DNA from: a virus
Taxonomy: Duplodnaviria; Heunggongvirae; Uroviricota; Caudoviricetes
IMG/VR virus record: IMGVR_UViG_2875697941_000001
Direction: 5' to 3' (one strand)
Length of the DNA stretch: 64,000 bases
The notes under the pieces were generated by a model. It had not been told where the DNA came from and did no database searches. It worked only from the letters and a program-made list of their open reading frames with translations. The translations under genes and the position numbers were made by a program. Numbering within the stretch: the stretch's first letter is position 1; every line of letters starts with the position of its first letter. Positions 5,926 to 64,000 of the stretch are shown one piece after another.

Positions 5926-8656
<2,731 letters not shown>

Positions 8657-19306: not shown

Positions 19307-19632
19307 TTCCCGCCTCCCTTTTTCACCAAACTTGTAAGAACATTCAGAATGCTATCGATATTCACTCGTTTCATCCCTGAAATCACCTCATGACCGTTAT
19401 TGCTGGCTATCGTTACCATTAAGTACGTAATTGATAACTCCCAGCCCTCGTGTTGCCCCAATAGGTACGCCACCGCGCCAGCTGTCACTGCAACAAAGAT
19501 CTCCGTAACCAATCCCAACAAATTGCCAGACTGGCGACCGTCTCGGACATCCATCAGGAACGTGCCTATCCCACCAATTACTGAAAGCAGGAGCGCAATA
19601 GCAACTGGAGCTAATTCCTGTGTGTCAAGCAC
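19303..19632 (-). CDS. lydA: Holin (P1 LydA-like)
   Basis: 109 aa with 2-3 predicted TM helices and charged C-terminus; heads the lyd-dar cluster. Confidence 0.5.
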   Translation of the reverse strand: MLDTQELAPVAIALLLSVIGGIGTFLMDVRDGRQSGNLLGLVTEIFVAVTAGAVAYLLGQHEGWELSITYLMVTIASNNGHEVISGMKRVNIDSILNVLTSLVKKGGGK

Positions 19633-20416: not shown

Positions 20417-20827
20417 CTACGCCTCCGGGAACGCTGGCCAATTGACATCTGGTGCAGTGCTGGTATCCGTTGCGGTCACCGCATCGATATAATCCAGCAC
20501 AGCGTTAAGACGGGTGGTTTCAGCCTGCGTAAGATTCCGCCCGGCCTGTAATTTCAGTTGAATAAGACTAATGGAAGCCATTGCGGTATCAATCAGCGAC
20601 TGTTTTTTCTGTTCAGCGTCAGCTACCAGTTCATCATGAGAACGTTCCGGAGTGGGTGGCGCAGTAAATCCCCCGTCTGAATACACCCAGCCGATTCCGG
20701 GCTGCTCACTGATATCAGAAATATTAATGAGCTGCTGATTATCCGGCACTGTGAATTCAGCCTCGCCATCCCAGACAATGACATTCACAACCATCCCATT
20801 TTCAATAACTGCATATGATGTATTCAT
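20417..20827 (-). CDS. Tail fibre assembly chaperone
   Basis: N-terminus MNTSYAVIENGMVVNVIVWDG and C-terminus ...TSTAPDVNWPAFPEA typical of the Tfa/U family; ATG overlaps tail-fibre stop (TAATG). Confidence 0.7.
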   Translation of the reverse strand: MNTSYAVIENGMVVNVIVWDGEAEFTVPDNQQLINISDISEQPGIGWVYSDGGFTAPPTPERSHDELVADAEQKKQSLIDTAMASISLIQLKLQAGRNLTQAETTRLNAVLDYIDAVTATDTSTAPDVNWPAFPEA

Positions 20828-23800
20828 TATGCAAACTCCTCGATAATACAAATCCCTGCAGCGCCTTTCCCGCCCGTCATACTGGTTCCGCTATAACCGG
20901 CATCGTATGCACCACCGCCGCCCGAACCATATGCCCGACCGATAACGCCACCGCCAGCGCCTGCGCGACCACCGCCCCCCCAGAACGATGATCCTCCTTC
21001 ACCACTGACGCTGATATTTCCGGACTGACCGTCACCTCCATGCCCACCAATAATGCGGACATCACCAGTATTCGGCGCGCCTCCATTACCACCGTTCGTG
21101 TTTGTGACTCCTACTTTCCCGCCGCCTTCACCGCCAGGGGCTATTACCGTTCCGAACGAGCTATCACCGCCCTTGAGGCCGTTCGTCGCACCAACACCGC
21201 CGCCCCCACCTGCGCCGATAGTGACTGGATAACTATTCTGTGTCGGGGTCATTATTGAAATTATTGTCCCACCGGCCCCACCGCCAGCACCGAAAAACGT
21301 CTCGTTATTGGATGTAGCCTGGCAGCCACCACCTCCGCCACCGCCGCCCGTAATTGTGACCCTGATTCGTTTTGTTCCTGGCGTCGGGGTATACGTACCT
21401 GATGAAGTGAAAACCCGGGTATTCACCAAACGCCCAACATATCCGCTTGAATCGCTCAGGCCAAGGTTAGCAGCAGTTAAAGTAATATTTGCAGAACCAT
21501 CAAACTTAACACCGTTGATAGTGCGTGCAGTCTGTAGTTTCGTTGCGGTTGCGGCATTACCGGTAGTGCTCTGATTACCTGCTTTATTCACGCCCGGCAG
21601 GTCGATATTGGCACTACCATCGAATGACACTCCGCCTATTGTGCGTGCTGTTTGCAGTTTTGTTGCAGTTGCAGCATTGCCGGTAGTGCTCTGATTACCT
21701 GTTTTATTCACGCCCGGCAGGTCGATATTGGCACTACCATCAAATGACACCCCGCCGATTGTGCGTACTGTTTGCAGTTTCGTAGCGGTTGCAGCATTGC
21801 CGTTCAAACTACCATTGATGCCGCCAGTAACATTGAGTCCATTACCGATCGTAACAGTACCATTGGCATTGTTAATGATAAGCGGCCTTAAATTATTATA
21901 GGTTCCCAGGCTGTTACCCGAATTGGTCAACATGAAATATGTGTTTGAACCATCGTTTCGGATAAAGAATCCGTAGTTTCCGTAGGCAATGCGCAGACCA
22001 TTCGCCGATTTTGAAATGATCTCACCAGTAGCCGTTAAACCGCCGTTGAGATTTCCTCCGGTTATTGGTAATGCGCCGACATCCGTGGCGGTCGGTTTAA
22101 TGTGCGAACTGTAAATTACATATACAGTTCCATCTGTCAGGCCTGTTGGTTTATTCGCTGTATAAGATGGTGATGTATGAATCGTTACGCTGGCGTTACT
22201 GGTATAATCCCACTGAATATTAACACGTGTGGTGTAATTACCTATTTCAACATAAACATCATAGGTATCACCGGATGTATTCACCCATGCAAAATTAGTA
22301 AATCCAACCGATGTCCGTCGCCATAACGCACCAGTAAGACCTTTTGGATTCCCATTTCCCGCACGAAGAACAAGTTCAGATATACCAGCCTGCATAGGGG
22401 AGTTAACATTATATCCAGAACCACCAATCAGGCTTATGTAAACCACGGAACTGGACTGTGGCATGGTTACAGTTGCCAGCTTGAACCATCCAGTACCACC
22501 ACTAAAAGACATTGTTGTTGAGTTGATCGTGCCTATAGACCTTGGAGTTAGCTCAATGTTTTTAGAACCGTCAAACAACACCCCATTTATAGTTCTAGCG
22601 GTTTGTAACTTGGTCGCTGTCGCTGCATTACCGGATGTATTCTGATTACCCGCAACGTTAACACCAGGTAAATTAATATTCGCAGTACCATCAAAGCTAA
22701 CTCCGCCGATAGTTCTTGCCGTCTGTAGTTTTGTAGCAGTTGCCGCATTGCCAGTTGTATTCTGATTGCCAGTGGCATTCACACCAGGAATGGAGTCCCT
22801 TGATGTATATACCTGCGCCCACGCTGACCATGCCGCATCAGTGTGATCTCTTCGGGAGCGAATGAAAACCGGCGCATGTGCACCGCTCGTACCACTCCAG
22901 CCAATAAGCAACTCGCCCTCACCAGCAGCACTCGCACCTTTCATGTGCAATACGTTGCCATACGCGGTCGGGTAGCTATTGTTGTACGCCTCATACATCT
23001 GCAATCCAGTAGCAGCACCTTGTGTTGTATCGGTGAGCGCAGTAACACGCCCTCTGGACGTAATTGTTGGTATCGAAATGTTCGCAGAACCATCAAACTT
23101 AACACCGTTGATTGTGCGTGCTGTTTGCAGTTTTGTAGCAGTTGCAGCATTGCCGGTAGTGCTCTGATTACCTGCTTTATTCACGCCCGGCAGGTCGATA
23201 TTGGCACTACCATCAAACGACACTCCGCCGATTGTGCGTGCTGTTTGCAGTTTTGTGGCGGTGGATGCATTACCTGTCAAAGATCCACTAAGAGCCACGG
23301 CACTAAGAGACTTAACACTTACATCCTGACCCCATCCGGAAACAACAACCTGACTCCACGCTGTCCAGTTTCCATTAACAACAAAGCGAACGTATATACG
23401 TTTTGTGTCGCTGTTAATCAGCGTTTGCATGTTCGCATAATCTGATCCCGTAGTCTTACGAATCGACTCTACACGAACCAAAAAGTTACCGCTTACGCCG
23501 TCAGGCTTATTGGTAATATTTGCACCACCTGCGACAGTTTTGCATTGATAGTATTTAACGGATCCAGCTTCTGTATTAGCAATAATCAAGTCGTTTAAAT
23601 CAATAGCCCGGCCGTCAATGGCTTCCGGCTCGATGGCTCCTGCTATCCCGGCACTGAATGTAGCAGCGGCTGAAAACGCTGTCTTACCTTTGAAAGTCTG
23701 TTGAGAACTCCAGGTATTAGCTGTGCTCAACAGGGGGATCTTTTCGCCGCTGGTTCCGATTTCTCTTAAACCAAGGTATTGGATAACAGCCAGTGTGCTT

Positions 23801-25134
23801 GTTTTAGCCAGGATATCGCGACCGACTGACGTTAAATCAGTCTGGGAAACAGTGTCTGTACCGGTAAAGTACGGCAATTTATTTGCGCCTGTCGCAAGAC
23901 CAGCAAGCGCGGTTAAAGTTGCATCCAGAGGCTGTTTGCCTGCCAGCGCATTTGTCATTGTTGTCGCAAAGTTCGGGTCATTGCCCAGTGCTGCTGCAAG
24001 CTCATTCAGGGTATCAAGAGCTTCAGGTGATGAGCCGACCAATGCAGAGATAGCAGCTCTTACATAAGCGGTCGTAGCAATCTGCGTGTTATTCGTACCC
24101 TGTGCAGCGGTAGGCGCAGTAGGTATTCCCGTTAATGCAGGACTTGCTAAAGGAGCTTTAAGAGCCAGAGCATTGTTGATAGTTGTGCTGAAATTCGGGT
24201 CGTTATTGATCGCAGCAGCTATTTCTTTAAGCGTATCCAGTGTGCCAGGTGCACCGTTGATAAGTGCCGTTACAGCTGCCTTAACAAAGGCTGTATTTGC
24301 GATCTGCGTGCTGTTTGTACCTTGCGCTGCCGTCGGCGCGGTTGGCGTTCCTGTCAGACTCGGGCTTTCTATTGGCGCTTTGGTATCAGCCAGCTCTTTT
24401 ACAGACTTAACGGCTTTAGGGGTAGCCGCCATTGTTTCGCTGTCGCTGTTAGTTGCGCTACTGAGCTGAACTAATCCCTTTTGTGTTGTGCTTGCATCCT
24501 GCGCCGTATACTTGCTTTTAGCCAGATCGTAGGCTTTTTTAACCGCCAGCGAACTTGCAGCGACATCACTTCTGGTACTGGTTACAGAGTCGGAAATTTC
24601 AATGCCTATCGCGAGATCGATGCGGTCGGATACATCTATCATTTCCTTAGTAATAGCAGATACGCCAGCAGGGATATTCACCGTACAAACAAGCAGTTCC
24701 CCATCTCCTAACTGATATGAATCGGTATAGGTTCTGGCAACAAATTCAGCCGCATGAATATGTGACGCGGTATTAACCTGATAAGAATCTTCTCCAAGGA
24801 GGTATCTTCCCTTCAGCACAATTGCATATTTCTTACCTGCGCTAAGTGCAAGAGAAATATCCTTACGCTGCTGAATAGTTACCTGGTAGAATTCACCAAT
24901 ATTCACTGACGCCGCGCCAGCGGTTTTATCACCATCCACTGAGGTGATTAACAGGTTCATCCCACCGCCAGGCTTAGGAAAAAAACCGGCATAAAATCCA
25001 GGGTCAACAATTCCCCTGAATTTTCGGTTTAGCGCGGCTGACAGATATGGTTCGTGGTATTGCACATCAGCCACCAGAGCCAACGACTCGGGTGATGGGT
25101 AAGTAACCGATGTGACAACTGTAACGTCATTCAT
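20827..25134 (-). CDS. Tail fibre protein (P1 S-like N-terminus), ~1435 aa
   Basis: Repeated GNAATATKLQTARTIGGVSFDGSANI modules; KQPLDATLTALAGL fibre motif; Gly-rich C-terminal domain; start set at ATG 25134 with AAGGA RBS. Confidence 0.8.
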   Translation of the reverse strand: MNDVTVVTSVTYPSPESLALVADVQYHEPYLSAALNRKFRGIVDPGFYAGFFPKPGGGMNLLITSVDGDKTAGAASVNIGEFYQVTIQQRKDISLALSAGKKYAIVLKGRYLLGEDSYQVNTASHIHAAEFVARTYTDSYQLGDGELLVCTVNIPAGVSAITKEMIDVSDRIDLAIGIEISDSVTSTRSDVAASSLAVKKAYDLAKSKYTAQDASTTQKGLVQLSSATNSDSETMAATPKAVKSVKELADTKAPIESPSLTGTPTAPTAAQGTNSTQIANTAFVKAAVTALINGAPGTLDTLKEIAAAINNDPNFSTTINNALALKAPLASPALTGIPTAPTAAQGTNNTQIATTAYVRAAISALVGSSPEALDTLNELAAALGNDPNFATTMTNALAGKQPLDATLTALAGLATGANKLPYFTGTDTVSQTDLTSVGRDILAKTSTLAVIQYLGLREIGTSGEKIPLLSTANTWSSQQTFKGKTAFSAAATFSAGIAGAIEPEAIDGRAIDLNDLIIANTEAGSVKYYQCKTVAGGANITNKPDGVSGNFLVRVESIRKTTGSDYANMQTLINSDTKRIYVRFVVNGNWTAWSQVVVSGWGQDVSVKSLSAVALSGSLTGNASTATKLQTARTIGGVSFDGSANIDLPGVNKAGNQSTTGNAATATKLQTARTINGVKFDGSANISIPTITSRGRVTALTDTTQGAATGLQMYEAYNNSYPTAYGNVLHMKGASAAGEGELLIGWSGTSGAHAPVFIRSRRDHTDAAWSAWAQVYTSRDSIPGVNATGNQNTTGNAATATKLQTARTIGGVSFDGTANINLPGVNVAGNQNTSGNAATATKLQTARTINGVLFDGSKNIELTPRSIGTINSTTMSFSGGTGWFKLATVTMPQSSSVVYISLIGGSGYNVNSPMQAGISELVLRAGNGNPKGLTGALWRRTSVGFTNFAWVNTSGDTYDVYVEIGNYTTRVNIQWDYTSNASVTIHTSPSYTANKPTGLTDGTVYVIYSSHIKPTATDVGALPITGGNLNGGLTATGEIISKSANGLRIAYGNYGFFIRNDGSNTYFMLTNSGNSLGTYNNLRPLIINNANGTVTIGNGLNVTGGINGSLNGNAATATKLQTVRTIGGVSFDGSANIDLPGVNKTGNQSTTGNAATATKLQTARTIGGVSFDGSANIDLPGVNKAGNQSTTGNAATATKLQTARTINGVKFDGSANITLTAANLGLSDSSGYVGRLVNTRVFTSSGTYTPTPGTKRIRVTITGGGGGGGGCQATSNNETFFGAGGGAGGTIISIMTPTQNSYPVTIGAGGGGGVGATNGLKGGDSSFGTVIAPGGEGGGKVGVTNTNGGNGGAPNTGDVRIIGGHGGDGQSGNISVSGEGGSSFWGGGGRAGAGGGVIGRAYGSGGGGAYDAGYSGTSMTGGKGAAGICIIEEFA
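21470..21840. repeat. Tandem ~120-bp in-frame repeats inside the tail fibre gene
   Basis: Three near-identical units encoding GNAATATKLQTARTI...; further copies at ~22540-22820 and ~23060-23300. Confidence 0.6.
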
Positions 25135-25145
25135 CAAGCATATCC

Positions 25146-25580
25146 TTATGCTGTAGTCGTGTTTATGGCCATAACTGCGGTATATGTTTTGCCCACATAC
25201 AGCGAGTCTTCCTGGACACAAATAATGGCGATTGGCTTGTTCTCGTTATCCAGAACAACCAGAGTGTTGAATGGGTAGTTTTTCCCTTTCTGCAACTGGC
25301 TTTGATCAAGGTCCATTCGGACAGTAATTATCCCGCCTGAGTAGGTTGGGACGAGGTTGATGGTGCAAAATTTACTGGTCAGTTCTGCCAGATCGAAAGC
25401 CTTTGGCAGTTCTCCAATCTCATAAGTGCCATCTCCTTTCTTAGTAACCAGTGAACTGGTACCGAAAACGGCCTTGCTGATTAAAAATCGAGAGCCTTTG
25501 TTAATGGACGATTCAGCGCGCCGCTGATAGTAATAGTCCAACAACTGACTCTTATAGAGGTTTGTTGAGACGTCAGACAT
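25146..25580 (-). CDS. Tail fibre-proximal structural protein (P1 R-like by position)
   Basis: 144-aa ORF immediately upstream of the tail fibre gene; synteny only. Confidence 0.45.
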   Translation of the reverse strand: MSDVSTNLYKSQLLDYYYQRRAESSINKGSRFLISKAVFGTSSLVTKKGDGTYEIGELPKAFDLAELTSKFCTINLVPTYSGGIITVRMDLDQSQLQKGKNYPFNTLVVLDNENKPIAIICVQEDSLYVGKTYTAVMAINTTTA

Positions 25581-25627
25581 GATTTTCCCTAATCAATGTT
25601 GTGAAGCCTCATTGTAAGAAAAGTAAC

Positions 25628-25658
25628 TTGTCACCCCGCCCTGCGGACGGGGTGATTG
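25628..25658. terminator. Hairpin terminator after the baseplate operon
   Basis: CACCCCG...CGGGGTG stem followed by T-rich tract on the minus strand. Confidence 0.45.
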
Positions 25659-26498
25659 TCAGGCGTCGCTATCCAGCAACAAATCATCTGCGCGTGTGCG
25701 ATCAAACGTAGGTGTCGCTTTCACAATAGTGCCACCAGGCGTTGCGGTGATCGGGGCGCTAATCGACGTAACTCCAGTAAGCGAAGTTGTATCCGAAGTT
25801 TCAAACCAGCAGTACGCTTTTTCGGTATCAGAAATCTCGTTCAAAGTGATCATGTCGGCCTGTTCATTCACAACAACCGACAAATAGAGCGTAAGCCCAT
25901 CAAACACTATATGCAGTGGCAGTAGAGGCTTTACGAACTGATTAAACTTTCTGAGAATTTCTTCTGTAATTGCGGACTGATCTATCGTGCCAGTAATACC
26001 CATTGTCCGGGCCAGGTCGTTTATGGGAATACTGATCATCCCTCTGGAAGTCAGAAACATCTCGCCGAATGTGCCGCCGGTAGTTTCCAGTGTGCTTTCT
26101 GGTATTAGAACTGTGCCATAGGGATGACGTTCAAGGTCCACCGGTGCATATATCGGATCCCATAAAACAGAAATACCATTAAATTCGCGGTAAATTGTCT
26201 GGTTTATAGGGCGTTCAGTCCCCTTAAAGTGAATCTCATCAAGCCGCTGTTGTAACAACATCGGAACGGAAGATGAGTTTGAGGTTCTGATAGTAAAGAA
26301 CTGGCCAAGTTCATTTGTCCTGGTCTCCAGATCCTCCTTGCTCATGGAAAAAATAGACTTCCGGTTGGTAATTCGCTCCAACCATGGGTCAACAAAGGTG
26401 TCCATCATTGACTGAACCAAATCAGCCAATGATTTATAGAGCAATGACTTTTGCTTAGCTGATGTAAGCCGATTATTAAACCAGGAACGTTGCATCAC
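25659..26498 (-). CDS. Baseplate protein (P1 gp16-like by position)
   Basis: 279 aa, stop-start overlap with the upstream baseplate gene; position equivalent to P2 gpI. Confidence 0.45.
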   Translation of the reverse strand: MMQRSWFNNRLTSAKQKSLLYKSLADLVQSMMDTFVDPWLERITNRKSIFSMSKEDLETRTNELGQFFTIRTSNSSSVPMLLQQRLDEIHFKGTERPINQTIYREFNGISVLWDPIYAPVDLERHPYGTVLIPESTLETTGGTFGEMFLTSRGMISIPINDLARTMGITGTIDQSAITEEILRKFNQFVKPLLPLHIVFDGLTLYLSVVVNEQADMITLNEISDTEKAYCWFETSDTTSLTGVTSISAPITATPGGTIVKATPTFDRTRADDLLLDSDA

Positions 26499-44520: not shown

Positions 44521-46248
44521 TTACTCAGAGTCACCGGCATCAATCGTGTCGCCGCTAATGAAGTTAAGCCCGCCTTTTTTGGCCATTGTCAGCGTTACAC
44601 GAGTGAAGTAATCAGCGCCGTTGCGTGGGTGCATATCGTTGATAGCCGAACCCCACAGCGTGGTACGGTTGACCAGCGCCGGAGTGGTCGGATGCTGGAA
44701 CGGGATGGCCGGGACAGCATCACCAGTCACGAAGCCTGCTTTACCCGGATTTTCATCACGGACGTAGCACAGCACATCCATCGAGCTGAACTGAATGTTC
44801 TCTGTCGTTAAGTTCTTACAAATACCAGCAGGTACTTCGTACACTTTCACGTTACCGAACAGGGTACCGATGTAGTGAACATACGGAGTCTGGATATAGT
44901 CTTCGGCTGGCTGGAAGAAATCCTTCGGCAACTGTTTGAAGAAAGATGCTGCATCAGCACCAGCAAACATCCCCATCGCACCAGAAGATTTAACGCGCTC
45001 AATAATGTCGCGATATACAGTCTGGAATTTGCCACGAATGATGGTTGCCCATACATCAAAGGACTGGTTAACCGGCAGAGCGATGTCAAAGGTGTCGGTC
45101 GCAAGAGTGCGCCAGATCATGATGCGAAGACGCAGCATATCCTGTTCATGAGACAGGTATTCCTTCAGGGTGCGGAACTGTAGGGAACCCAGGTCCAGAC
45201 CAAATTCACGCTGTGCTTCATACGCCGCCTGTACCGTGTGCTCAGCCGCGATAACGAACTGACTTGGGAACAGGGTGTATTTCTTCATTTCGTGGTTGAT
45301 CAGCGGGATCAGCTCAGGAGCGGCTTCAATATTGATTTCCGTCTCAATTGCGATCTCAGTGCCTTTATCCGGCGCTTTGGAGAACGACAGGGCAATCTGA
45401 CCAATGTTGTAGTTCAGAGAGCAGGTAACAGTGATTTGCTCACCAGCAGCATTAGTAAACGAGTGAAGTAGGCTGCCGGAACCGTTATCAACAACAGACT
45501 TAATACGGTTAACGTAGATGTTAGTGCGACCTTTTCGGATTGGTACATTCTGGCCTTCGAAGTCTTCCATCTTGAAGGTTGCGGTTTTGCTGGTGCCATC
45601 GGAGCTTGCCACCAGCACATAGCGGCGACGTAACTGGCTGTACACACCGACGGATTGCATGTCCAGAACATCACCAGCAGCATAAGAACCAAAAGATGAA
45701 CCTGCCACGTTAAAGACTTCATAGATGTCGGACTGGTCACGCGTAACCGGAATGAAGGTACACGCATCAGCGGTAGCTGCCCCCAACTGAACAGGCAGGA
45801 TCATCGCGAGGAATAAAGGCAGACGCATAACACCGTCAGAAACGCTCATCATCTCTGCTGCGACAGATTCCAGCATCGCTTTATTAGTGGCATCCATGCT
45901 ATTGCGGGTGGACTCAATCAGGCAGTTTTCCAGCGTCTGGTGGCAGGAGGCCAGAATTTCCGGACGCGGCATAGATTTATGTGCTGCGGCGTAGTCAGCC
46001 AGTGCACTTGCCCACGCTGTAGCGATTTGAGCGGTGGCATTATCAGAGATACCCACAAAAACCGGGTCTTTACGTGCAGCTTCAAGGATAGATGCGGCAC
46101 GCGCGGCATCATCTTTAATGAATTGGTTATCAGTACCGAACTGCGCAGTGCTTGCCCAGCCAAGCACAGCTTTAGAGCGTTTTGCGATATCTGCAATACG
46201 ATTCTGGTATTCGCGTAAGTTACTCAATTTACTCTTCCTTAAACACAA
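44521..46248 (-). CDS. Putative major head protein (P1 gp23-like)
   Basis: 575 aa, adjacent to parS as in P1; followed by hairpin GCGCCCC-loop-GGGGCGC at 44476-44494. Confidence 0.5.
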   Translation of the reverse strand: MCLRKSKLSNLREYQNRIADIAKRSKAVLGWASTAQFGTDNQFIKDDAARAASILEAARKDPVFVGISDNATAQIATAWASALADYAAAHKSMPRPEILASCHQTLENCLIESTRNSMDATNKAMLESVAAEMMSVSDGVMRLPLFLAMILPVQLGAATADACTFIPVTRDQSDIYEVFNVAGSSFGSYAAGDVLDMQSVGVYSQLRRRYVLVASSDGTSKTATFKMEDFEGQNVPIRKGRTNIYVNRIKSVVDNGSGSLLHSFTNAAGEQITVTCSLNYNIGQIALSFSKAPDKGTEIAIETEINIEAAPELIPLINHEMKKYTLFPSQFVIAAEHTVQAAYEAQREFGLDLGSLQFRTLKEYLSHEQDMLRLRIMIWRTLATDTFDIALPVNQSFDVWATIIRGKFQTVYRDIIERVKSSGAMGMFAGADAASFFKQLPKDFFQPAEDYIQTPYVHYIGTLFGNVKVYEVPAGICKNLTTENIQFSSMDVLCYVRDENPGKAGFVTGDAVPAIPFQHPTTPALVNRTTLWGSAINDMHPRNGADYFTRVTLTMAKKGGLNFISGDTIDAGDSE

Positions 46249-46339
46249 GGCACTTGTGTGAATCCCTTTTCGGAAGAGATTTTATTGAAAGTCACTTGTT
46301 GACTTTCTCGTGACAAGCAATTTTTTTATTTTTTTCGGG

Positions 46340-46442
46340 AGTAGGGGAGGAAGGTAAAATCCAAGGTGAAATCGTGGCGATTTCACCTTGAAATTTTAGA
46401 TAGATTTACTTTAAAAACAGTAGGTTAATAGTGAAATTTGAA
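46340..46442. other. parS: parS partition site (centromere)
   Basis: Palindrome GTGAAATCGTGGCGATTTCAC (box A ATTTCAC heptamers, box B TCGCCA hexamers) plus further box A/box B copies; just downstream of parB. Confidence 0.8.
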
Positions 46443-46452
46443 TGGCGAAAGT

Positions 46453-47454
46453 TTAAGGCTTCGGCTTTTTATCGAGGCTCTTTCTAAGGATATGCCCAAT
46501 CATCCTGTCGAGTTCTTCCTGTAACTCTTTTGAGAGTCGATTAAACTCATAAGAAAATGCACGGCCTTTCACGCGCTTCCTTGCAAAGCGATCCTTGTCC
46601 TCAAATTTCCATAATTCAGTAACTACGGACTTATCTTTAGAACCTTTATCCGTGAGTAGTGAGGCTTCCTTTGTTATCAAGCGCAGGATTTTATTTTTAA
46701 CTTCATCTTCGGCCATTTCTTCAATGGATAAGATGTCGTTTATTTCCGGGGATATGTTTTGAATAAGCTGATCAAACTCTAAATTCTTGTTCCCCATTTC
46801 GTCGCCAACAGCACAAAGCGTTTTGTAGTCCGAAAAGGTTAATTCCGACTGCACAGGGAAAAGGGCGACTAATTCTTCCGGAGCACTCGCTGCCTGGAGA
46901 GCACGCGTGACCTTCGCCTGAGACAGCCCTTCTTTGGCTGCAATATCCTTCTGACTCATCCCATCATTTTTCATTCGCATCAAACGCAGACCTATTTCTC
47001 GAATGCTGTGCTGCAATGCTGTCTGAACGTCTTTCGCTAAATTTTGCGCTTCCTGAACGCTGATCTCCTGGTCCGTGACTAAAACCCGCAACCCTACGTT
47101 CTCTAAGATGGCAGAAGCTCGACGCCGGGAACCATCCAAAATTTCAATTTTCCCTGTAGCCCGTCTAACACCTATTGCAGGGTAAAATTGCTGATGCTTA
47201 ATAGTGCTTCGGATACTTTTTAATGATTTTGGCGTAAGAGATGCCTGGTCACGCCCGTTGTTATGCTGATCAACAAAGGTATCGCTTTCTACCTGGTTCG
47301 GAGGTATTACCTCTTCAATAAATGTGGCCTGGCGACCAGTTGATAACTTGAATACCTGCTCGACTCGATCGCCAGAGGCTGAAGAACTATCAAATCCGCT
47401 TAATATTGAAGGATTAAGGGTTCGCCCAATTGTTGGTCTGTTTTTCTTTGACAT
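46453..47454 (-). CDS. parB: Partition protein ParB, 333 aa
   Basis: Size, position between parA and parS. Confidence 0.85.
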   Translation of the reverse strand: MSKKNRPTIGRTLNPSILSGFDSSSASGDRVEQVFKLSTGRQATFIEEVIPPNQVESDTFVDQHNNGRDQASLTPKSLKSIRSTIKHQQFYPAIGVRRATGKIEILDGSRRRASAILENVGLRVLVTDQEISVQEAQNLAKDVQTALQHSIREIGLRLMRMKNDGMSQKDIAAKEGLSQAKVTRALQAASAPEELVALFPVQSELTFSDYKTLCAVGDEMGNKNLEFDQLIQNISPEINDILSIEEMAEDEVKNKILRLITKEASLLTDKGSKDKSVVTELWKFEDKDRFARKRVKGRAFSYEFNRLSKELQEELDRMIGHILRKSLDKKPKP

Positions 47455-47470
47455 GGGGGTTTCTTACTCC

Positions 47471-48667
47471 TCAGTTAGATCTGATAAATTCAATACGGTC
47501 AAAAACTGCTTTAGCAAAATCTTCCGCGGCAATTCGCGCGTTCTTCAATGCATCAGCACTACCAACATACGTTGCCGGGTTAGCTGAAATAACAGTGTCA
47601 AAAGACTCGCCACAGCGTTCAAAACCGTCAAGGCGAGGGAGGACGACATCGAGCATATCCCCACCGAACACTTCTTTAGCCAGGCTATGGCAATACTTAT
47701 GGTCTGCCTTGTTACTCAATTTGGACATAAAACCAATGTTAGTCGCAAGCTGGCACTCGCAGCCTTCATCCGAAATGAGTTTCACCAACTCAGGAAGGCG
47801 GGCAACGTATTTAAGCGATGAGTGGAAATCAACCGTTGCAGGCGGCAGAGGTGTAAACAGTATATTGGCCGAGGCCAAAGCATTTTTCAGGAAGGCGTCA
47901 AGGTGAGGACCACTATCAACGAGGATAAAGTCATAATCGCTCTTCAGCTTATCAATCACATTTTCTTTCAGGACAGCATGGATGTTCTGACCCGGTAGAT
48001 GCTCATTGCACAGCTCTCTCCAATCGGATGCAATAAAGGCATCGTCAATCGACGCAGGCATAACGTCAACCCCAGGTACAACAGAAGGAACAATAAACTC
48101 CTCTAACAGCTCTTCACGGCTTACATTCTGCAACATAGCCTGTGCAGATGTTGCGTTTACGATACCAATAGAGTGTTTATGGCTTAAAAACATCGTTGCT
48201 GAAGATTGCGGATCAAGGTCAATAACCAGAATCCTTAAATCCTCCATAAGAAGATGAGGGTGAGCACGCATTGCATGCGCCAGAGAAACCGTCGATACAG
48301 TTTTTGACACACCGCCTTTAAGATTGGAGATGAAAATCACATACGCTTCGCTGTAGCGATCCCGGTATTTTGGCACTCCGCGATGTTCATATATGTCAAT
48401 GATGTTCTGAATTGACATCGCATATTTCATTGAAGAGCCAGCAGGGCGTTTATCGAAAACATAACCCTTTTCTTCCATTTCACTTACGGCATAGTCAACG
48501 TTCGCTCGAGTCAGTAGAGGCAATTTTGCCAGTGCCGCTTTCGCATAGACCTGGTAAAACTCGTTCGCGTGTAGCTCATCCTTTTGCAACTGTACTTGTT
48601 CAGTCAGAACATTGAGCATTCTGTTTGCTCTTTGAGCAACCTTGTGAAGCTGGCTGGAATCACTCAT
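47471..48667 (-). CDS. parA: Partition ATPase ParA, 398 aa
   Basis: Deviant Walker A KGGVSKT; N-terminal extension typical of type Ia ParA; upstream palindromic operator-like sequence at ~48700-48770. Confidence 0.85.
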   Translation of the reverse strand: MSDSSQLHKVAQRANRMLNVLTEQVQLQKDELHANEFYQVYAKAALAKLPLLTRANVDYAVSEMEEKGYVFDKRPAGSSMKYAMSIQNIIDIYEHRGVPKYRDRYSEAYVIFISNLKGGVSKTVSTVSLAHAMRAHPHLLMEDLRILVIDLDPQSSATMFLSHKHSIGIVNATSAQAMLQNVSREELLEEFIVPSVVPGVDVMPASIDDAFIASDWRELCNEHLPGQNIHAVLKENVIDKLKSDYDFILVDSGPHLDAFLKNALASANILFTPLPPATVDFHSSLKYVARLPELVKLISDEGCECQLATNIGFMSKLSNKADHKYCHSLAKEVFGGDMLDVVLPRLDGFERCGESFDTVISANPATYVGSADALKNARIAAEDFAKAVFDRIEFIRSN

Positions 48668-48805
48668 CGAAAGTCATCCTTTATGCTGTATTTTTGAATT
48701 TACTTAAAAATGCTGCATAAAATAATAATGTATGCACAGATGCTTGTACATAGCATTCTCTGCATGTTTGGTTCATTTTGCACGATTGAGAGTTACAAGG
48801 AGGAC

Positions 48806-48830
48806 ACAAAAAAGCCCCGTTCAGGGGCAT
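48806..48830. terminator. Rho-independent terminator after the T5orf172-like gene
   Basis: Hairpin GCCCC-GTTCA-GGGGC followed by TTTTTTG on the minus strand. Confidence 0.55.
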
Positions 48831-48835
48831 CAGTG

Positions 48836-49645
48836 TTATTTGCTAAGAGCAGCGAATAATCGTTCGAAATCGATAGTATCTATAGCACGCGTAAGCGCCG
48901 GAAGTTCAGCCTCAAAGTACCCGTGTCGATCGTAAAAGAAGGGACCGAAGAGCGAGGCATGTTGGATTCTACTTCGCCCCAGCCCGGACACACAGTTAAG
49001 CCCATTACCGGCTAAAAGGCTAAAAAACTTCTCTGGATTATCGTGGTAAAGCTGGGAATCAATGGTGGCGGTTAACTCTTCCATAGGGAAGCACACCCGC
49101 CTTGTCTCCCAGGGATATTTAGTCCGAAGCATAAACATTGCTTTCAGCAATTCACATTGAGCGCGGATCGCGTCCGGTTCATAGCCAGATATGGAGACAT
49201 AAGCCATGTCCCTCATTCCTGCGTCATCTTTGAAAGTCACGATAGAAGTAACATCCAGCTCTTTTTCGAAAGAGCGAGCAGCATCTACTGGACGCTGAAG
49301 TAAATCATTCGACTTAATGCGCTCGAGAATCCCTCCCCACATATCATTTAGATATTCGATATGAGCCAAAACCTTATCAAGACACTCTCGTGTAAACCAT
49401 TCAGTATGCCCGCCACCGGCGCTTTTCTCCCACGGCGCATTCCAGGGGAAAAAGGTTGCGTGTAAAGCCCGCTCAAGATTAACTATTGCCAATCGCGTAC
49501 CACGATAGACCCGTGAAAGCGCAAAATCGGGACTCACTTGTAGCCCTTTAAACCGTGCCAATGGACCACATGAAATGCCGATTTTAAAAGTATCTCCATT
49601 CTCCGGCACCAGAACGTAGAGGTAGTGTTGTTTCTCTTCTTGCAT
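48836..49645 (-). CDS. T5orf172/GIY-YIG-like domain protein, 269 aa
   Basis: N-terminal pattern HYLYVLVPENGDTFKIGIS...R...HTEWF fits the T5orf172 motif layout; own terminator; lies between incA-like iterons and the parA promoter. Confidence 0.5.
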   Translation of the reverse strand: MQEEKQHYLYVLVPENGDTFKIGISCGPLARFKGLQVSPDFALSRVYRGTRLAIVNLERALHATFFPWNAPWEKSAGGGHTEWFTRECLDKVLAHIEYLNDMWGGILERIKSNDLLQRPVDAARSFEKELDVTSIVTFKDDAGMRDMAYVSISGYEPDAIRAQCELLKAMFMLRTKYPWETRRVCFPMEELTATIDSQLYHDNPEKFFSLLAGNGLNCVSGLGRSRIQHASLFGPFFYDRHGYFEAELPALTRAIDTIDFERLFAALSK

Positions 49646-49678
49646 ATCAATACCACTGCTTGATGAGAACCGCGCAAA

Positions 49679-49935
49679 TGTTGACTATGCGCGAAAGTTA
49701 ATGTGAATAGTTGACTATGCGCGATGTGACTACAGTCAAAAGTTGACTGTAGTCGATTTAACTCCACCAAAGATCGACTATGTAAGATATTGTCGGGAGA
49801 AACGTTGACTATACGCGATGAAATGACCCTAAAAGCCATCTCAATAGCGACTTGCAGAATATTGACGCCAGCAAAAATCCACCAGCGTCAACGAATGTCG
49901 CCTATAGTCAACTTCTCGCTATCGCATATAGTCAA
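49679..49935. repeat. incA-like iteron cluster downstream of repA
   Basis: At least 7 copies of TTGACTAT/ATAGTCAA-containing ~19-bp repeats in both orientations. Confidence 0.6.
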
Positions 49936-49937
49936 TA

Positions 49938-50822
49938 TTATGGATTGCGCTTATGGATCTGGAAGCCGATTTTCCTGCCGTTTTTTATCTCTGAAAATTT
50001 AAGATATTCAATAGCTTCCAAATCTTTCATGGCTTTTCTGATAACGCTATTTTGCACGCTAACGGATGATTTGAGATTAAGCCTTGCTCTAAGGCGCTCA
50101 ATGCTGACAGGTGCCGGGTTGGCGGGTAGAGCCTCAAAGAATGTATACAGTACCTTGGCCGTCTCTTTGCGCCCGAGCTTATCCAGCATCTTCAGCTTCA
50201 GGATTCGCTTATAGTCAACATAGTAAAGTTCAGATAGCTGTTTCTGCGGCTGGATCTCGATAACATCAAGCTCGGTATTCAGGCTGCTATATGCCAACAA
50301 GTTGACGTTAATGTTATTGAGATGACCTTTTGCTGCCGGGAAGCGGAATTTGACAACTGTCTGCTGAATGCGTGTCAGAGAGTCATCAATACTTTTACGG
50401 AACGCCTTTGAAAGGCGCTTACGTGGATAGCCGCATCGATCGGCAAACTCGGAGAATGGCAGGGTGATTATGCCGTCATCATCAGGTGCGTAGTCAAACA
50501 ACGCGGAGGTTATGCCCACCCACACCTTAAAATCAGTATCCATATCCAGGCGTGGACCATGAATTTCAATTCCCTCATAGCCTTCCTGCTCAACAATTTT
50601 GAGGCTTGATAGTTCTTCGGTTGCGTTCGTTGTGTTTGTAGTAACTGACGATCCGCGACGTAGTGCCACATTGGTAGATTTTAAGGTTGGCACAAACACA
50701 CCTAAGCGCAACAAAGCGATGGGTTGTATAGTGCTATTGTTATTGGGTTTCAGGCTGTGGATTTCTCCTGTATTTCCTGCAACTTCTTCAACGCTAAGGA
50801 AGCCTTTATTTTCTTCCGGCAT
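49938..50822 (-). CDS. repA: Plasmid replication initiator RepA (P1 RepA family, divergent)
   Basis: ATG 50822 with GGAG RBS (track TTG 50879); segments TIQPIALLRLGVFVP and GPRLDMDTDFKVW resemble recalled P1 RepA; iterons on both sides. Confidence 0.7.
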   Translation of the reverse strand: MPEENKGFLSVEEVAGNTGEIHSLKPNNNSTIQPIALLRLGVFVPTLKSTNVALRRGSSVTTNTTNATEELSSLKIVEQEGYEGIEIHGPRLDMDTDFKVWVGITSALFDYAPDDDGIITLPFSEFADRCGYPRKRLSKAFRKSIDDSLTRIQQTVVKFRFPAAKGHLNNINVNLLAYSSLNTELDVIEIQPQKQLSELYYVDYKRILKLKMLDKLGRKETAKVLYTFFEALPANPAPVSIERLRARLNLKSSVSVQNSVIRKAMKDLEAIEYLKFSEIKNGRKIGFQIHKRNP

Positions 50823-50900
50823 CGTGGTTTCTCCATATGTGGCGCGGCCTGGCGTCATCTGGATTGCAGTTATCAACAACTGTGAATAGTCAGGCTCTAA

Positions 50901-51005
50901 AATCGCGTACAGTCAATGTTTCTGTCGCGTATAGTCAACAATAAATCGCGTGCAGTCAACAATAAATCGTGCACAGTCAACATAAAATCGCGTATAGTCA
51001 ATGTT
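50901..51005. repeat. incC-like origin iterons
   Basis: Five direct 19-bp repeats AAATCGCGTRYAGTCAAYR spaced 22 bp. Confidence 0.7.
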
Positions 51006-51126
51006 GATCCCATTTCAGGCCAGAAATGGCGCGGCTTACAGCGATCCGGGATCTTCTTTGGATCTTCCTAGGTTCTCTTTGGGATCTGTTTATTGGATCT
51101 ATGCTGTGGATAAGTTGAATAAACCG
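51006..51126. other. Plasmid origin core: GATC cluster plus DnaA box
   Basis: Six GATC sites within 51006-51099 and DnaA box TTATCCACA (minus strand) at 51106-51114, next to the iterons. Confidence 0.65.
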
Positions 51127-51156
51127 GCCAACAAAGCCGGTTGGAAGGAAGCCATA

Positions 51157-60990: not shown

Positions 60991-63900
60991 TCAACGAATA
61001 CTGATGCCGGAAGCGGCTTTTTTGGTCACAATCACCGTACAGTCGGTGATATTGCCTGCCCCCTGATTGCCTTTCTGGAAAATCTTAAACTCCAGAGTGA
61101 CGCTTCCCCTGCCACTCGGCATATCAATAACTGCACTGTAACTACCGGGAATGGCCCCTTTAGTTTCTCTGGATGCGATTAATACGCCGTTTTTGCGAAC
61201 TTCAAAACCATAACCCGTGTATCGCGTGCCTCCTGGGTTATTTCCGCTCCCCGGATCGTCATACGCTATACCGTTAAAAATAATGGGCGGAATAATAATC
61301 TGGCGGTCAAAGTTATGATCATCGCTGATGGTGACTGTAACCGTACCGTTTGGTGTTTCCGTGTTACCCCACGTACCGACTTTTTTCGGGAAGGCTTTTG
61401 ATACAGCTTTAACGAAATCTCCTCTGACCTGGGTCGCCTCCAGCATGCCCTTAATCGTACAGTTCTGGTTAATCGTGACATTGTTGAGCGTTCCTGAGTT
61501 CGCATTCACACTGCCACTGATATCCGCATTTTTCGCCGTCAGTCTCCCGTCTGATGTCAGGGAAAATGCCGGAGGATTACCGCCGCTGGTAATGGTGGGG
61601 GCCGTCAGGCGTTTCAGGAACACTTCATTCATGAATATCTGATCGCCCTGACCAACAAACATCGGCTTTGTGTTGCCATTCGCAGGATTAATCATCGCAA
61701 TCCTGTCTGCTGCCAGCAGCACCTGACTCTGCATGCCGTCAGGGGTGTTCTCAATACCGGCACCGATACCCGCAATATAAAGGCGTCCGTCCTGCATCTG
61801 CTGCAGCTTCACTGCCCACATGCTGTTCAGGTTATTATTTGTATCAACCTGAACCTTCTGTATCTGCTGGATCGCTGCACTCTGGTCTTCCAGTTTCTTA
61901 TTGACGGTCTGTGTTATTTCATTGCTGACATCCGTTATGGACGTCCTGATTTCAGTCAGGTCAGGCGCAAGCTGACCGTTATCAATCTGCGTCCACAGCT
62001 CCTGAGCCAGATGGGTTTTCCCTATCTCGCCTTTGAAAAAATCCAGATAGCCTGATGCATCATCACTCGGCTGACCGACAGCCTCCACGAATGCCGATTT
62101 GCCAACGGTGTTCACACTGCGAACGTAAAAATAATAATCATGGCCCGGTTTGATATTGATACTGGCGGCTATCCAGTACAGTGCCGTACCAAGATAACGC
62201 GCGCTGGTTTCAACCTGCCTGATATCCGCAATCCGTTTTTCCGAGAACCAGAACTCAAACTGTACCGTCGGGTCATAAACCGCAAGATGCGGCGTGGCGG
62301 TTATCTGAAAATAGCCCGGTGTCAGCTCAATCCGCGACGGCGCTGCCGGTGCGGCAATCCGGAACGATACCGATGCCGGATCGCCCTGCTGTCCCCACGC
62401 ATTTACCGCCCGGACTGTCAGCCTGTAGTTCCCCAACGCCAGTTGTGTGAAGCGGTATGTGGTTTCCGTCGTCCGGGCCGTGCTGACCAGCCGCTCACTG
62501 CCGTCGTCCGCTGTTACGGTCAGACGGAGCAGGAAGCTCACGCCCTTCACCACCTTCGGTGTGTCCCAGCGCGCCAGCACCTGATATTCCCCGCTGTCTG
62601 CGGTGACTTCGGCAGTCAGGTGCTGCACCGCTGGCGGCGTGACACCATTCACCGTGCCGCTCTGGTCGCCGTCAAAGTGCGCCCCGTTATCCACGATGGC
62701 CTCTTTTTCCGGCACATGCTGCACGGCGGTGATGGCATACGTGCCGTCGTCGTTCTCACGGATACTCACGCAGCGGAACAGTCGCTGGCGCAGCGTCGGC
62801 TGCTTCAGCCCCCACACGCTGTATCCGGCAACGCCGTCAGGAACACGGCTCACTTTTACCTTCACGCCGTCGGTGACGGACTGGACCTCCACGCTGACCG
62901 GATTGCCACTTCCGTCAACCAGGCTTATCAGCGTGGTACCGGAGGATGGCAGCGTGATTTCACGGTCGAGCGTCAGCGTCCGGGTCTGGCTGTTCACCGC
63001 CAGCACGCGCCCGCCGATGCTGATACCCGCATAGTCATCATCGCAGATTTCAATGACATCCCCCGGTACATGGCGAAGCCCTTCCGCACCCACGCTGAAG
63101 TCCACGGTCTGCGTTTCCAGCAGTTCCGTTTTAATCAGCCACAGCCCGGCGCGGTGCGCCTGCCCCCGGCTGGTACAGCCAAAGGCATCCATCTTCGTGA
63201 CGTTACGACCGTAACGGGCAATGGCCTGCGTATCTTCAACAAGCTCTGTCGCCGTCTCCCAGCCGTTGTTCGGGTCAATCCAGTTCACCTCAACGGCATT
63301 ATGGCGGTCCTTCAGGGCGCTGAAGCTGTAGCGGAACGGCGCGCCATCATCCGGCATCACCACATTACTGCGGTTATAGGTCCACACCTTATCCGACGGT
63401 CGGTCCTGCACGAACGTCAGCGCTGTGTGGTCAGGTACGCATTACAGGTGATGCGCGGCTCCGTGCCGCCAAAGCCGTCCGGCACTGACTGGTCGCAGTA
63501 CTGGCCGATGACATACAGCGCCCATTTGTCCACATCCGCCGCACCAAGACGTTTCCCCATGCCGTAGCGCGGGTGGGTCAGCATATCCCACAGACACCAG
63601 GCCGGGTTGTTGCTGTATGCCGGCTTAAACGTTCCGTCCCAGATACCGCTGTATTGCCGCGTCTGCGGGTTATAGTTCGACGGCACCTGCAGAATGCGCC
63701 CGCGAAGATGATAATTACGGCTCACCTGCTGGCTGCCGAACTGCTCCGAGTCCACCTGCACGCCGACCAGTGCCGTGTTCGGGTAGCACTGTTTCACATC
63801 GATGATTTCGGTGTATGACGACCAGAGCGTTTTGTTCTGCAGCTGGTCTGTGGTGCTGTCCGGCGTCATCCTGCGCATCCGGATATTAAACGGGCGCGGC

Positions 63901-64000
63901 GGCAGGCTACCCACCACCACCGAGGCCAGATACTGCGAGGTGGTTTTGCCCTTAATGGTGATGTCTTTTTCCGTCACCCAGCCACCATTACGCTGTATCT
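60991..64000 (-). pseudogene. J: Lambdoid host-specificity protein J, frameshifted; 5' end beyond window
   Basis: Two J-like ORFs in different frames: 63417-64000 ends ...[11 protein letters not shown]-stop, and 60991-63411 resumes at ...[11 protein letters not shown]; recalled lambda J has ~23 aa between, implying a ~70-bp deletion. Distal ~250 aa diverge from lambda J. Confidence 0.75.

Follow-up and report, generated by a model that had tools for sequence, protein, structure and literature searches.

A 148-residue tail-fibre module shared by a P1-like plasmid prophage and a lambdoid prophage: two old alleles that probably meet only in a concatenated record

Organization of the two tail-fibre genes

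The window analyzed here, a 64,000-nucleotide stretch of DNA assigned to the Caudoviricetes (IMG/VR record IMGVR_UViG_2875697941_000001), contains two tail-fibre genes, A and B, each of which carries one copy of a shared 148-codon segment that we refer to as the module (Table 1). The parts of gene A follow one another in the order P1 Sc, orphan cix site, 120-bp shaft repeats, module, Gp34_trimer domain, further repeats and Gly_rich_2 tip; the Pfam matches on protein A are Phage_fiber_2 (residues 215–254), Gp34_trimer (1010–1087) and Gly_rich_2 (1244–1432). Positions 23687–25700 of the window, cix included, are 94.8% identical to P1 (M81956; R and Sc). This homology stops at 23687, roughly 75–85 bp distal of cix, and the homology to both P1 and P7 ends before the module is reached. 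Since neither a cin gene nor a second cix is present in the window, the cix site is an orphan; there is also no recombinase-sized open reading frame between the fibre and holin genes, and no alternative Sv'/U' cassette in the window. The cix site, ~1.2 kb proximal of copy A, is the sole real crossover site in the window.

Gene B is a lambdoid side-tail-fibre gene, as judged by its PF08400 N-terminus (E = 1.5e-71) and its position downstream of J and lom (Lom, 60321–60920). Protein B matches phage_tail_N (residues 1–134), Collar (761–808) and Caudo_TAP (987–1106). The presence of Caudo_TAP in the same chain reflects a 211-bp deletion that removed the last ~70 stf codons and joined the remainder in frame to tfa, so that the window stf has neither an intact C-terminal tip nor a separate downstream tfa. 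The undeleted form is found in all 12 of the best-ranked genomes (the best 12, with ~1,100 further full-coverage records behind them), and a search for exact matches to the Stf-Tfa fusion protein returned no record. The gene calls of the GenBank record CP035322.1 contain a tfa-sized product, and no gene is called from there to lom, where stf lies. The J gene of the same lambdoid prophage is also frameshifted. Several families of short repeats occur in the window, with units of 120 bp and 132 bp.

Table 1. Features of the two tail-fibre loci and of the junction between them (window coordinates)
Feature	Coordinates	Strand	Remarks
Tail-fibre assembly chaperone (Caudo_TAP)	20417–20851	-	Lies downstream of gene A
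P1-like gpS-type tail-fibre gene (A)	20827–25134	-	1,435 aa from ATG at 25134; 98–99.9% to P1-like plasmids
Gp34_trimer domain (PF21446)	21874–22107	-	Pfam; directly distal to copy A, not beside copy B
Module copy A	22108–22551	-	Residues 862–1009 of the 1,435-aa fibre; predicted all-beta, no Pfam family
Intact P1 cix crossover site, Sc/Sv boundary	23761–23786		TTCTCTTAAACCAAGGTATTGGATAA; base-for-base identical to P1
Phage_fiber_2 (PF03406) repeat region, fibre A	24388–24547	-	73–75% nt to stf units
IS10/ISVsa5 terminus in P1-like dam gene, then cut off	56698–56846		148–149 bp; putative plasmid contig end
Putative contig-concatenation junction, plasmid contig and Qin-type prophage contig	56846–56847		CP035322.1
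Lambdoid side-tail-fibre gene (B), disrupted, stf-tfa fusion	56936–60256	-	1,106-aa ORF
211-bp stf/tfa deletion junction	57518–57521		Relative to GF43 (L002), 6677–6887
Phage tail Collar domain (PF07484)	57833–57976	-	Pfam; directly distal to copy B, not beside copy A
Module copy B	58001–58444	-	Residues 605–752 of the Stf-Tfa fusion ORF; 99.8% to GF43 stf module
Three tandem ~132-bp Phage_fiber_2 units, stf	58511–58881	-	Homologous to 24388–24547

Alignment and borders of the shared segment

Taken in codon register on the minus strand, the two modules (22108–22551 and 58001–58444) align without gaps over their 148 codons and are identical at 339 of 444 nucleotides (76.4%) and at 124 of 148 residues (83.8%; E = 4e-81 at the protein level). 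A BLASTN search returned a gap-free match of 418 bp between 22120–22537 and 58013–58430, with 78.2% identity and E ~1e-95. Random 444-nt pairs from the window have a mean identity of 25.1% (sd 2.2, maximum 34%), which puts the module at z ~23. The first-pass annotation had reported a homologous segment in the two fibre reading frames, at 22130–22580 and 57970–58420, with ~85% nucleotide identity, and had suggested a pairwise alignment as a check. The alignment, well above background, bears out the homology in a weaker form: nucleotide identity is 76–78%, the value of 85% approximates that of the proteins, and the two intervals are out of register by ~50 bp.

The segment is sharply bounded, with identity falling to background (17–40%) within ~30 nt on both flanks. 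The differences between the copies are distributed over the three codon positions as 21/13/71; pS reaches 0.65, close to saturation for synonymous sites, dN/dS is 0.07, and the longest run of exact matches is 18 bp. A second, weaker element common to both fibres is formed by the Phage_fiber_2 repeats (24388–24547 against 58511–58881), which are 73–75% identical at the nucleotide level and ~60% at the protein level, and which exceed the gathering threshold of 22 bits in both proteins, scoring 97.2 in A and 181.5 in B. This second element was absent from the first-pass annotation.

The junction at 56846/56847

Positions 44619–64000 of the window are 100% identical to GenBank CP035322.1, and the two modules lie on either side of a junction within this stretch. 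Bases 1–56846 belong to a P1-like plasmid prophage that is collinear, at 99.95–99.97% identity, with the circular plasmid pYLMB49b, which has a full-length IS at the same dam site, and bases 56847–64000 belong to a defective chromosomal Qin-type lambdoid prophage, beginning 8 bp past the point that corresponds to the pinQ stop codon of an intact relative. We located two sister records, CP035320.1 and CP035321.1, by a look-up of the IS-truncated Dam protein. Both contain the same dam-IS stretch and break at the identical nucleotide, and the three records continue into three unrelated right-hand sequences, one of which, in a sister record, is a further plasmid-like block, in which genes for Rep3 and omptin are found. 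CP035320.1, CP035321.1 and CP035322.1 belong to the assemblies GCA_004116835.1, GCA_004116595.1 and GCA_004116695.1. A literature search with the accession numbers found no paper.

IS elements mediate plasmid-chromosome fusions. We considered whether the junction is real, with the P1-like prophage integrated beside the lambdoid prophage through an IS10-associated rearrangement and the modules forming true direct repeats 35.9 kb apart. The 5.05-Mb deposit is indeed a single sequence whose joint contains no Ns, and such fusions do occur. However, the break lies 148–149 bp inside the IS rather than at its terminus, has no target duplication and has 1 bp in common with the other side. The three sister records are cut at the same base and have three different right-hand neighbours, an identity of truncation that independent biological events would not produce. 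Moreover, a free circular plasmid that bears the full IS at this site matches the left part collinearly at 99.96%, no sequence spanning the junction was found in 5,426 complete E. coli genomes or 72,556 plasmids, and the exact junction 43-mer is absent from the genome_contigs and viral_contigs collections. The mid-IS break and the shared truncation base led us to reject a genuine IS10-mediated cointegrate, which we regard as very improbable.

Based on these observations, we read CP035322.1 as a probable pseudo-chromosome, in which an IS10-ended plasmid contig appears to have been joined to a chromosomal contig without a gap. The first-pass annotation described the copies as having the same orientation and lying ~35.8 kb apart; the true offset in the record is 35,893 bp, and it is a property of the database record, since the copies look co-oriented and 35.9 kb apart because CP035322.1 would concatenate two contigs. 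Spacing, shared orientation and deletion potential would therefore all be artefacts. The same appears to hold for CP035320.1 and CP035321.1, which together with CP035322.1 seem to have been joined from contigs without gap markers. If so, long-range features across the joins, such as repeat spacing, synteny, 'integrated' plasmids and prophage neighbourhoods, are spurious.

Recombination between the two copies

The proposal that the two copies form a direct repeat through which the DNA between them could be deleted or exchanged is not supported by these data: the junction at 56846/56847 separates the copies, which would lie on different replicons rather than on one molecule, and their uninterrupted identity reaches only 18 bp within a segment that is 76–78% identical. 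The minimum uninterrupted identity for RecA/RecBCD recombination is about 23–27 bp. For Red-beta a minimum of ~30 bp is quoted, and E. coli recombination on plasmids drops ~10,000-fold at 4% divergence (PMC3945230). Copies A and B are poor recombination substrates even in trans.

A recent gene conversion or recombination event between a co-resident P1-like plasmid and the lambdoid prophage could nevertheless be envisaged, since one assembly contains both elements, which probably shared one cell, and since phage recombinases of the Rad52 type are able to act on diverged stf/tfa regions of lambda and the Rac or Qin prophages (PMC3945230). Against this stand the 22–24% nucleotide divergence, the pS of 0.65 and the short exact run, together with the closer relatives that each copy has elsewhere: copy B matches the module of the intact Qin-type stf of strain GF43 at 99.8%, and copy A has a counterpart of 100% identity in pC5104 and one of 93.5% in a P2-type fibre. 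The near-saturated synonymous divergence indicates that A and B have not been exchanged recently, and with these relatives in view we reject a recent A–B exchange as extremely improbable. Capture of the window's two copies by an invertase is likewise unsupported, since matches to crossover sites of the cix/gix type flanking either copy are at chance level window-wide, with one cix-like core in the fibre. Finally, tail fibres are rich in short repeats, as the 120-bp and 132-bp families illustrate, but the chance that the similarity is convergent or of low complexity, with no discrete homologous module, is negligible in view of the alignment statistics: the 148-codon alignment is ungapped, the segment is non-repetitive and occurs once per fibre gene, unlike tandem units, and motifs including NTSGD(T/N)YD are kept in homologues down to 43–55% identity.

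Distribution of the module and cross-family alleles

The module is present in 1,914 of 5,426 complete E. coli genomes (~35%), at 2,135 chromosomal and 243 plasmid places, and also in Shigella, E. albertii and Y. pestis. It occurs in 296 phage records, including T-even-like gp37, myoviruses of ~86–89 kb and SSU5. It is carried by P1-like, P2-like and lambdoid fibres and by fibres of invertible cassettes, more distant relatives of it occur in T-even gp37, and nine PHROG tail-fibre families match it at differing profile positions. No Pfam family matches the module (residues 862–1009 of A and 605–752 of B), and a phmmer search returned no PDB match at E ≤ 10. Among the database homologues, many are partial proteins located at the termini of 450–800-bp contigs, which marks the module as a frequent breakpoint of short-read assembly.

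The relatives of copy A include the module of a P2-family fibre in the gpH position (L006; 93.5% identity), that of a silent invertible cassette adjoining a recombinase (L007; 89.6%) and that of another P1-like plasmid, from strain Ec40743 (L017; only 78.2%), a canonical invertible relative. The distal half of the L017 fibre is of the lambdoid type: it is 92.0% identical to the window stf, with homology starting at the exact N-terminal border of the module, and its tfa is 89% identical. L007 contains an 83-nt inverted repeat with a gix-like site, and the module starts ~15–30 nt distal of it, as the first domain past the inversion site. A module lying distal to a crossover site and beside a recombinase is thus found in L007 and for neither window copy. 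In a database fragment (P0002), an A-type upstream context is joined to a B-type module. On these identities, module alleles do not track phage family. The mosaicism between phage families proposed by the first-pass annotation is therefore upheld, with a P1 gpS-type gene A, a lambdoid Stf gene B and module alleles that cross families.

Discussion

We consider it highly probable that the window holds two old alleles of a mobile 148-residue fibre module, which reside on separate elements and are joined only in a concatenated record. The module, predicted to be all-beta, would mark the proximal limit of the distal fibre region that binds the receptor and is exchangeable. It is ancient and under purifying selection, and would have been moved repeatedly by recombination among P1-like, P2-like, lambdoid and invertase-controlled fibres, sometimes alone and sometimes with everything distal to it, chaperone gene included. 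The two window copies would then be old paralogous alleles on two different elements of one strain: (i) a P1-like plasmid prophage of ~94 kb, whose gpS probably has no Cin inversion system now and (ii) a defective Qin-type lambdoid prophage of the chromosome, with both stf and J disrupted. The sequence data show the homology and its sharp borders, the pattern of selection, the distribution, the sharing of alleles across families and how the junction is built; we infer both the structural 'adapter' or 'knob' role of the module and the recombination routes of its movement.

A bolder reading, which we put forward tentatively and think rather doubtful as a whole, is that the module is a dedicated 'adapter', with a conserved coding sequence that may serve as the preferred landing pad for swaps of receptor-binding tips and chaperone genes among plasmid prophages and integrated prophages that share a cell and phages that infect it. 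It might then represent an unrecognised, structurally novel domain family that bounds host-range cassettes proximally in P1-like, P2-like, lambdoid and T-even-like phages. Hints in this direction are the start of the L017 homology at the module border, the place of the L007 module directly after the inversion site and the A/B join in P0002.

Because module alleles cross family lines, the host range of P1-like phage-plasmids is to be inferred from distal fibre modules and not from the P1 backbone. Furthermore, the module is very common in E. coli, yet it has neither a Pfam family nor a solved structure.

Comparison with known systems

P1 gene S with its Cin/cix C-segment resembles gene A in the R gene, in Sc and in the conserved cix, and the plasmid replicon with its RepA-type initiator, ParA/ParB, C1, Phd/Doc and other P1 functions is likewise shared. 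The window fibre differs from P1 in having no cin, second cix or Sv'/U', and in its distal ~950 residues, which form a long non-P1 arrangement with a Gly-rich end. Gene B resembles the lambda-type Stf and Tfa of Qin and Rac in its PF08400 N-terminus, Phage_fiber_2 repeats, Collar domain and place downstream of J and lom, and Qin-type prophages are 96–100% identical to the lambdoid part of the window; unlike those genes it is decayed, the 211-bp deletion having taken the His-rich tip and fused stf to tfa. De Paepe et al. 2014 (PMC3945230), in a study of relaxed homologous recombination of temperate phages with defective prophages, also dealt with the stf/tfa loci of Qin and Rac and likewise asked whether diverged homology gives rise to mosaics. 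The recombining substrates there were 79–98% identical with exact runs of 41–298 bp, whereas the window copies are 76–78% identical over 0.42 kb with a maximum run of 18 bp.

The mosaicism seen here is already known and classical. Mosaic tail fibres of unrelated phages were described by Haggard-Ljungquist et al. (1992, J Bacteriol 174:1462), and the same picture by Sandmeier et al. (1992, J Bacteriol 174:3936) and Sandmeier (1994, Mol Microbiol 12:343), all as cited in PMC3945230 (refs 71–74). The window resembles the mosaic P2 H, P1 S, Mu S, lambda stf-tfa and T-even gp37-38 system in having a segment common to the fibres of a plasmid-prophage myovirus and a lambdoid siphovirus, in its spread to P2-type fibres, invertible cassettes and T-even-like gp37, and in its sharp homology borders, with invertase crossover sites in some elements. 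It is one more example of long-known modular tail-fibre evolution and brings no conceptual change; there is no difference in kind, and this particular 148-residue module is without a Pfam family or solved structure.

Homology between the two fibre genes

We compared the P1-like gpS-type tail fibre gene (gene A, encoding protein A) with the lambdoid Stf-Tfa fusion ORF (gene B, encoding protein B), and BLASTN of the two regions returned a single ungapped match of 418 bp (22120-22537 versus 58013-58430; 78.2% identity, E ~1e-95). In codon register the match is a module of 148 codons, whose two copies (A and B), each within a long minus-strand ORF, are identical at 339 of 444 nucleotides (76.4%) and at 124 of 148 amino acids (83.8%). 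Random 444-nt pairs drawn from the window have a mean identity of 25% and a maximum of 34%, and the homology is therefore real. The first-pass annotation was thus right to report a segment common to both fibre genes, and the intervals it quoted (22130-22580 and 57970-58420) show clear homology on direct alignment, but they are off register by ~50 bp. Its figure of ~85% nucleotide identity fits the protein identity rather than the measured 76-78%, and it overlooked a second, weaker common element, the Phage_fiber_2 (PF03406) repeats at 24388-24547 and 58511-58881 (73-75% nucleotide identity).

Differences between the copies fall at codon positions 1/2/3 in the numbers 21/13/71 (pS = 0.65, dS ~1.5; pN = 0.10; dN/dS = 0.07), exact identity extends over 18 bp at most, and background identity is reached within one 30-nt step on both sides. 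The module is an old coding unit with sharp borders under purifying selection; recent copying between A and B is rejected by this pattern of divergence.

No Pfam family covers the module in either protein and no sequence relative was found in the PDB; matches to nine PHROG tail-fibre families lie at differing profile positions. Modelled with AlphaFold2 on a 14-sequence alignment, the module is all-beta, at moderate confidence (pLDDT 65, pTM 0.67). Our reading is that it forms a putative structural "knob/adapter" of beta-sandwich type within the trimeric fibre.

Coordinates of fibre-gene features and of other repeats in the P1-like element
Feature	Coordinates	Strand	Remark
Gene A	ATG at 25134, ORF 20827-25221	-	1,435 aa
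Module copy A	22108-22551	-	aa 862-1009 of protein A
cix crossover site, intact	23761-23786		in gene A
Shaft repeat families, ~120 bp	21484-21808, 22555-22788, 23077-23281		in gene A; 40-aa, "GNAATATKLQTARTI.GV.FDGSANI"; 70-90% identity
Caudo_TAP chaperone gene	20417-20851		after gene A
Gene B	ORF 56936-60262; stf-tfa fusion ORF 56936-60256	-	
Module copy B	58001-58444	-	aa 605-752 of protein B
stf/tfa deletion junction	57518-57521	-	in gene B, versus GF43
Tandem Phage_fiber_2 units, ~132 bp	58511-58861		in stf; 87% identity
Tandem duplication, ~298 bp	31303-31898		79% identity; in gene of 1,239-aa transglycosylase (SLT) domain protein
Common 270-bp stretch	36790-37059 vs 37752-38021		67.5% identity; two adjacent antirepressor (Ant/KilAC domain) genes, probably paralogous domains

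Context of the two copies

Gene A starts as P1 gene S; window positions 23687-25700 are 94.8% identical to P1 R and the constant part of S. The P1 homology ends ~75-85 bp distal of cix, so that replacement of the variable part was not exactly at this site; no cin gene, second cix or alternative cassette was found in the window. Distal to cix follow 120-bp shaft repeats, the module, a Gp34_trimer domain, further repeats and a glycine-rich tip. The intragenic shaft repeats, unlike the module pair, vary in copy number: near 23089-23277 the circular 94-kb P1-like plasmid pYLMB49b (NZ_CP073955.1) has one unit more than the window.

Gene B lies downstream of J and lom. Its N-terminus is of the lambdoid Stf type (PF08400), and after it come three Phage_fiber_2 units, then the module and a Collar domain. 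Compared with strain GF43, whose intact Stf has 943 aa, the gene has lost the His-rich C-terminal ~70 codons through a 211-bp deletion that leaves the remainder in frame with tfa; GF43 and the P1-like plasmid of strain Ec40743 both have the lost tip, and 12 of the 12 best-matching complete genomes have the undeleted form of stf. The host-specificity gene J is frameshifted at ~63412-63441 (residues 334-347 lost; frame -3 to -2), apparently by the loss of ~64 bp flanked by short GCG(T)CTG repeats. Given these two lesions, the lambdoid element is a decaying, defective prophage. The number of Phage_fiber_2 units also appears to differ between the window and GF43, the BLAST segments overlapping at 58686-58729.

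A probable contig junction separates the copies

Window 1-56846 is collinear with pYLMB49b at 99.95-99.97%, the sole difference being one 120-bp fibre repeat unit. An IS10/ISVsa5 terminus starts at 56698, within the dam gene, and ends after 148-149 bp; pYLMB49b carries a full-length IS at the same dam site and a second copy elsewhere. From 56847 the window is a chromosomal Qin-type prophage, its first base 8 bp beyond the stop codon of pinQ in an intact relative. The break lies away from the IS end, with no target duplication and a single base in common with the other side. Neither the 5,426 complete E. coli genomes nor the 72,556 plasmids searched include a record that crosses the junction, and its 43-mer was not found in genome_contigs or viral_contigs.

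Exact matching of the IS-truncated Dam protein traced the window to the 5.05-Mb "chromosome" record CP035322.1, whose locus 104544-126667 matches window 44619-64000 at 19,382 of 19,382 bases (100%). The P1-like stretch, a whole plasmid contig, recurs in the sister records CP035320.1 and CP035321.1, at other positions and orientations, and in all three records the P1-like contig ends at the identical IS10 nucleotide (148-149 bp in). Beyond the break, one sister record runs on into a plasmid-like block that carries Rep3 and omptin genes, and the other into an island-like block. One shared truncation point followed by three unrelated stretches of DNA points to repeat-ended contigs concatenated without Ns; biological rearrangements arising independently would not give this pattern. 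Judged from sequence, the three records look like pseudo-chromosomes lacking gap markers, and copies A and B appear to reside on separate molecules. Features spanning such joins over long range are untrustworthy, and, of the new information, this data-quality point is of most use.

The IS cuts short the P1-like Dam-family methyltransferase ORF (54619-56742) close to its 3' end, and the frame runs on for 45 bp within the IS. pYLMB49b, from a poultry isolate from Cuba, encodes an identical truncated protein, and the insertion is thus inherited and not private to the window's strain.

Potential for deletion or exchange

The copies had been proposed to form a direct repeat, ~35.8 kb apart in the same orientation, that could mediate deletion or exchange of the DNA between them. 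With a contig join between them this hypothesis has no substrate, and with the copies on separate molecules the 35.9-kb spacing and common orientation are properties of the record, not of the cell. A crossover in trans would be expected to insert the plasmid at the prophage and delete nothing. At 22-24% divergence, with exact runs of at most 18 bp, the copies would in any case be a poor recombination substrate. The passages of De Paepe et al. (PMC3945230) on divergence give a ~10,000-fold drop in plasmid recombination in E. coli at 4%, a ~100-fold drop in phage Red recombination at 12% and a minimum of ~30 bp for Red-beta; the most diverged productive substrate named there is 79% identical over 980 bp, with a 41-bp exact run.

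Distribution and mosaicism

Of 5,426 complete E. coli genomes, 1,914 carry the module, at 2,135 positions on chromosomes and 243 on plasmids; it is also present in Shigella, in E. albertii and, at 49% amino acid identity, in Y. pestis. Distant relatives (30-55% amino acid identity) are found in 296 phage records, which include T-even-like gp37 distal subunits, ~86-89-kb myoviruses, SSU5 and Acinetobacter phages. Many homologues among the database proteins P0001-P0044 are partial proteins ending 450-800-bp contigs, so that short-read assemblies commonly break at the module. P0002 combines an A-type upstream context with a B-type module. In P0024, an Stf that has undergone large internal deletions, the sequence passes directly from mid-module to the His-rich tip.

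Copy A is 93.5% identical to the module of a chromosomal P2-family fibre (gpH position; L006) and 89.6% identical to that of a silent invertible cassette beside a recombinase in the 48-kb phage-plasmid of ATCC 25922 (L007), where a gix-like crossover site precedes the start of the module by ~15-30 nt. A different P1-like plasmid, that of Ec40743 (L017), has a module only 78.2% identical to copy A. L017 is a P1-like element of the canonical invertible kind, and in its gpS P1 Sc is followed by a distal half 92.0% identical to the window stf (736 bp); this homology begins exactly at the N-terminal border of the module, and the downstream tfa is 89% identical. On these alignments, module alleles do not follow phage family, and the suggestion of tail-fibre mosaicism between families is upheld since alleles cross them. 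It is better documented by L006, L007 and L017 than by the window pair. We infer that the module marks the proximal edge of an exchangeable distal fibre part. Tail-fibre mosaicism is a classical finding (Haggard-Ljungquist et al. 1992; Sandmeier et al. 1992/1994; listed as refs 72-74 of PMC3945230), and a module common to unrelated phage fibres is a kind of feature already known.
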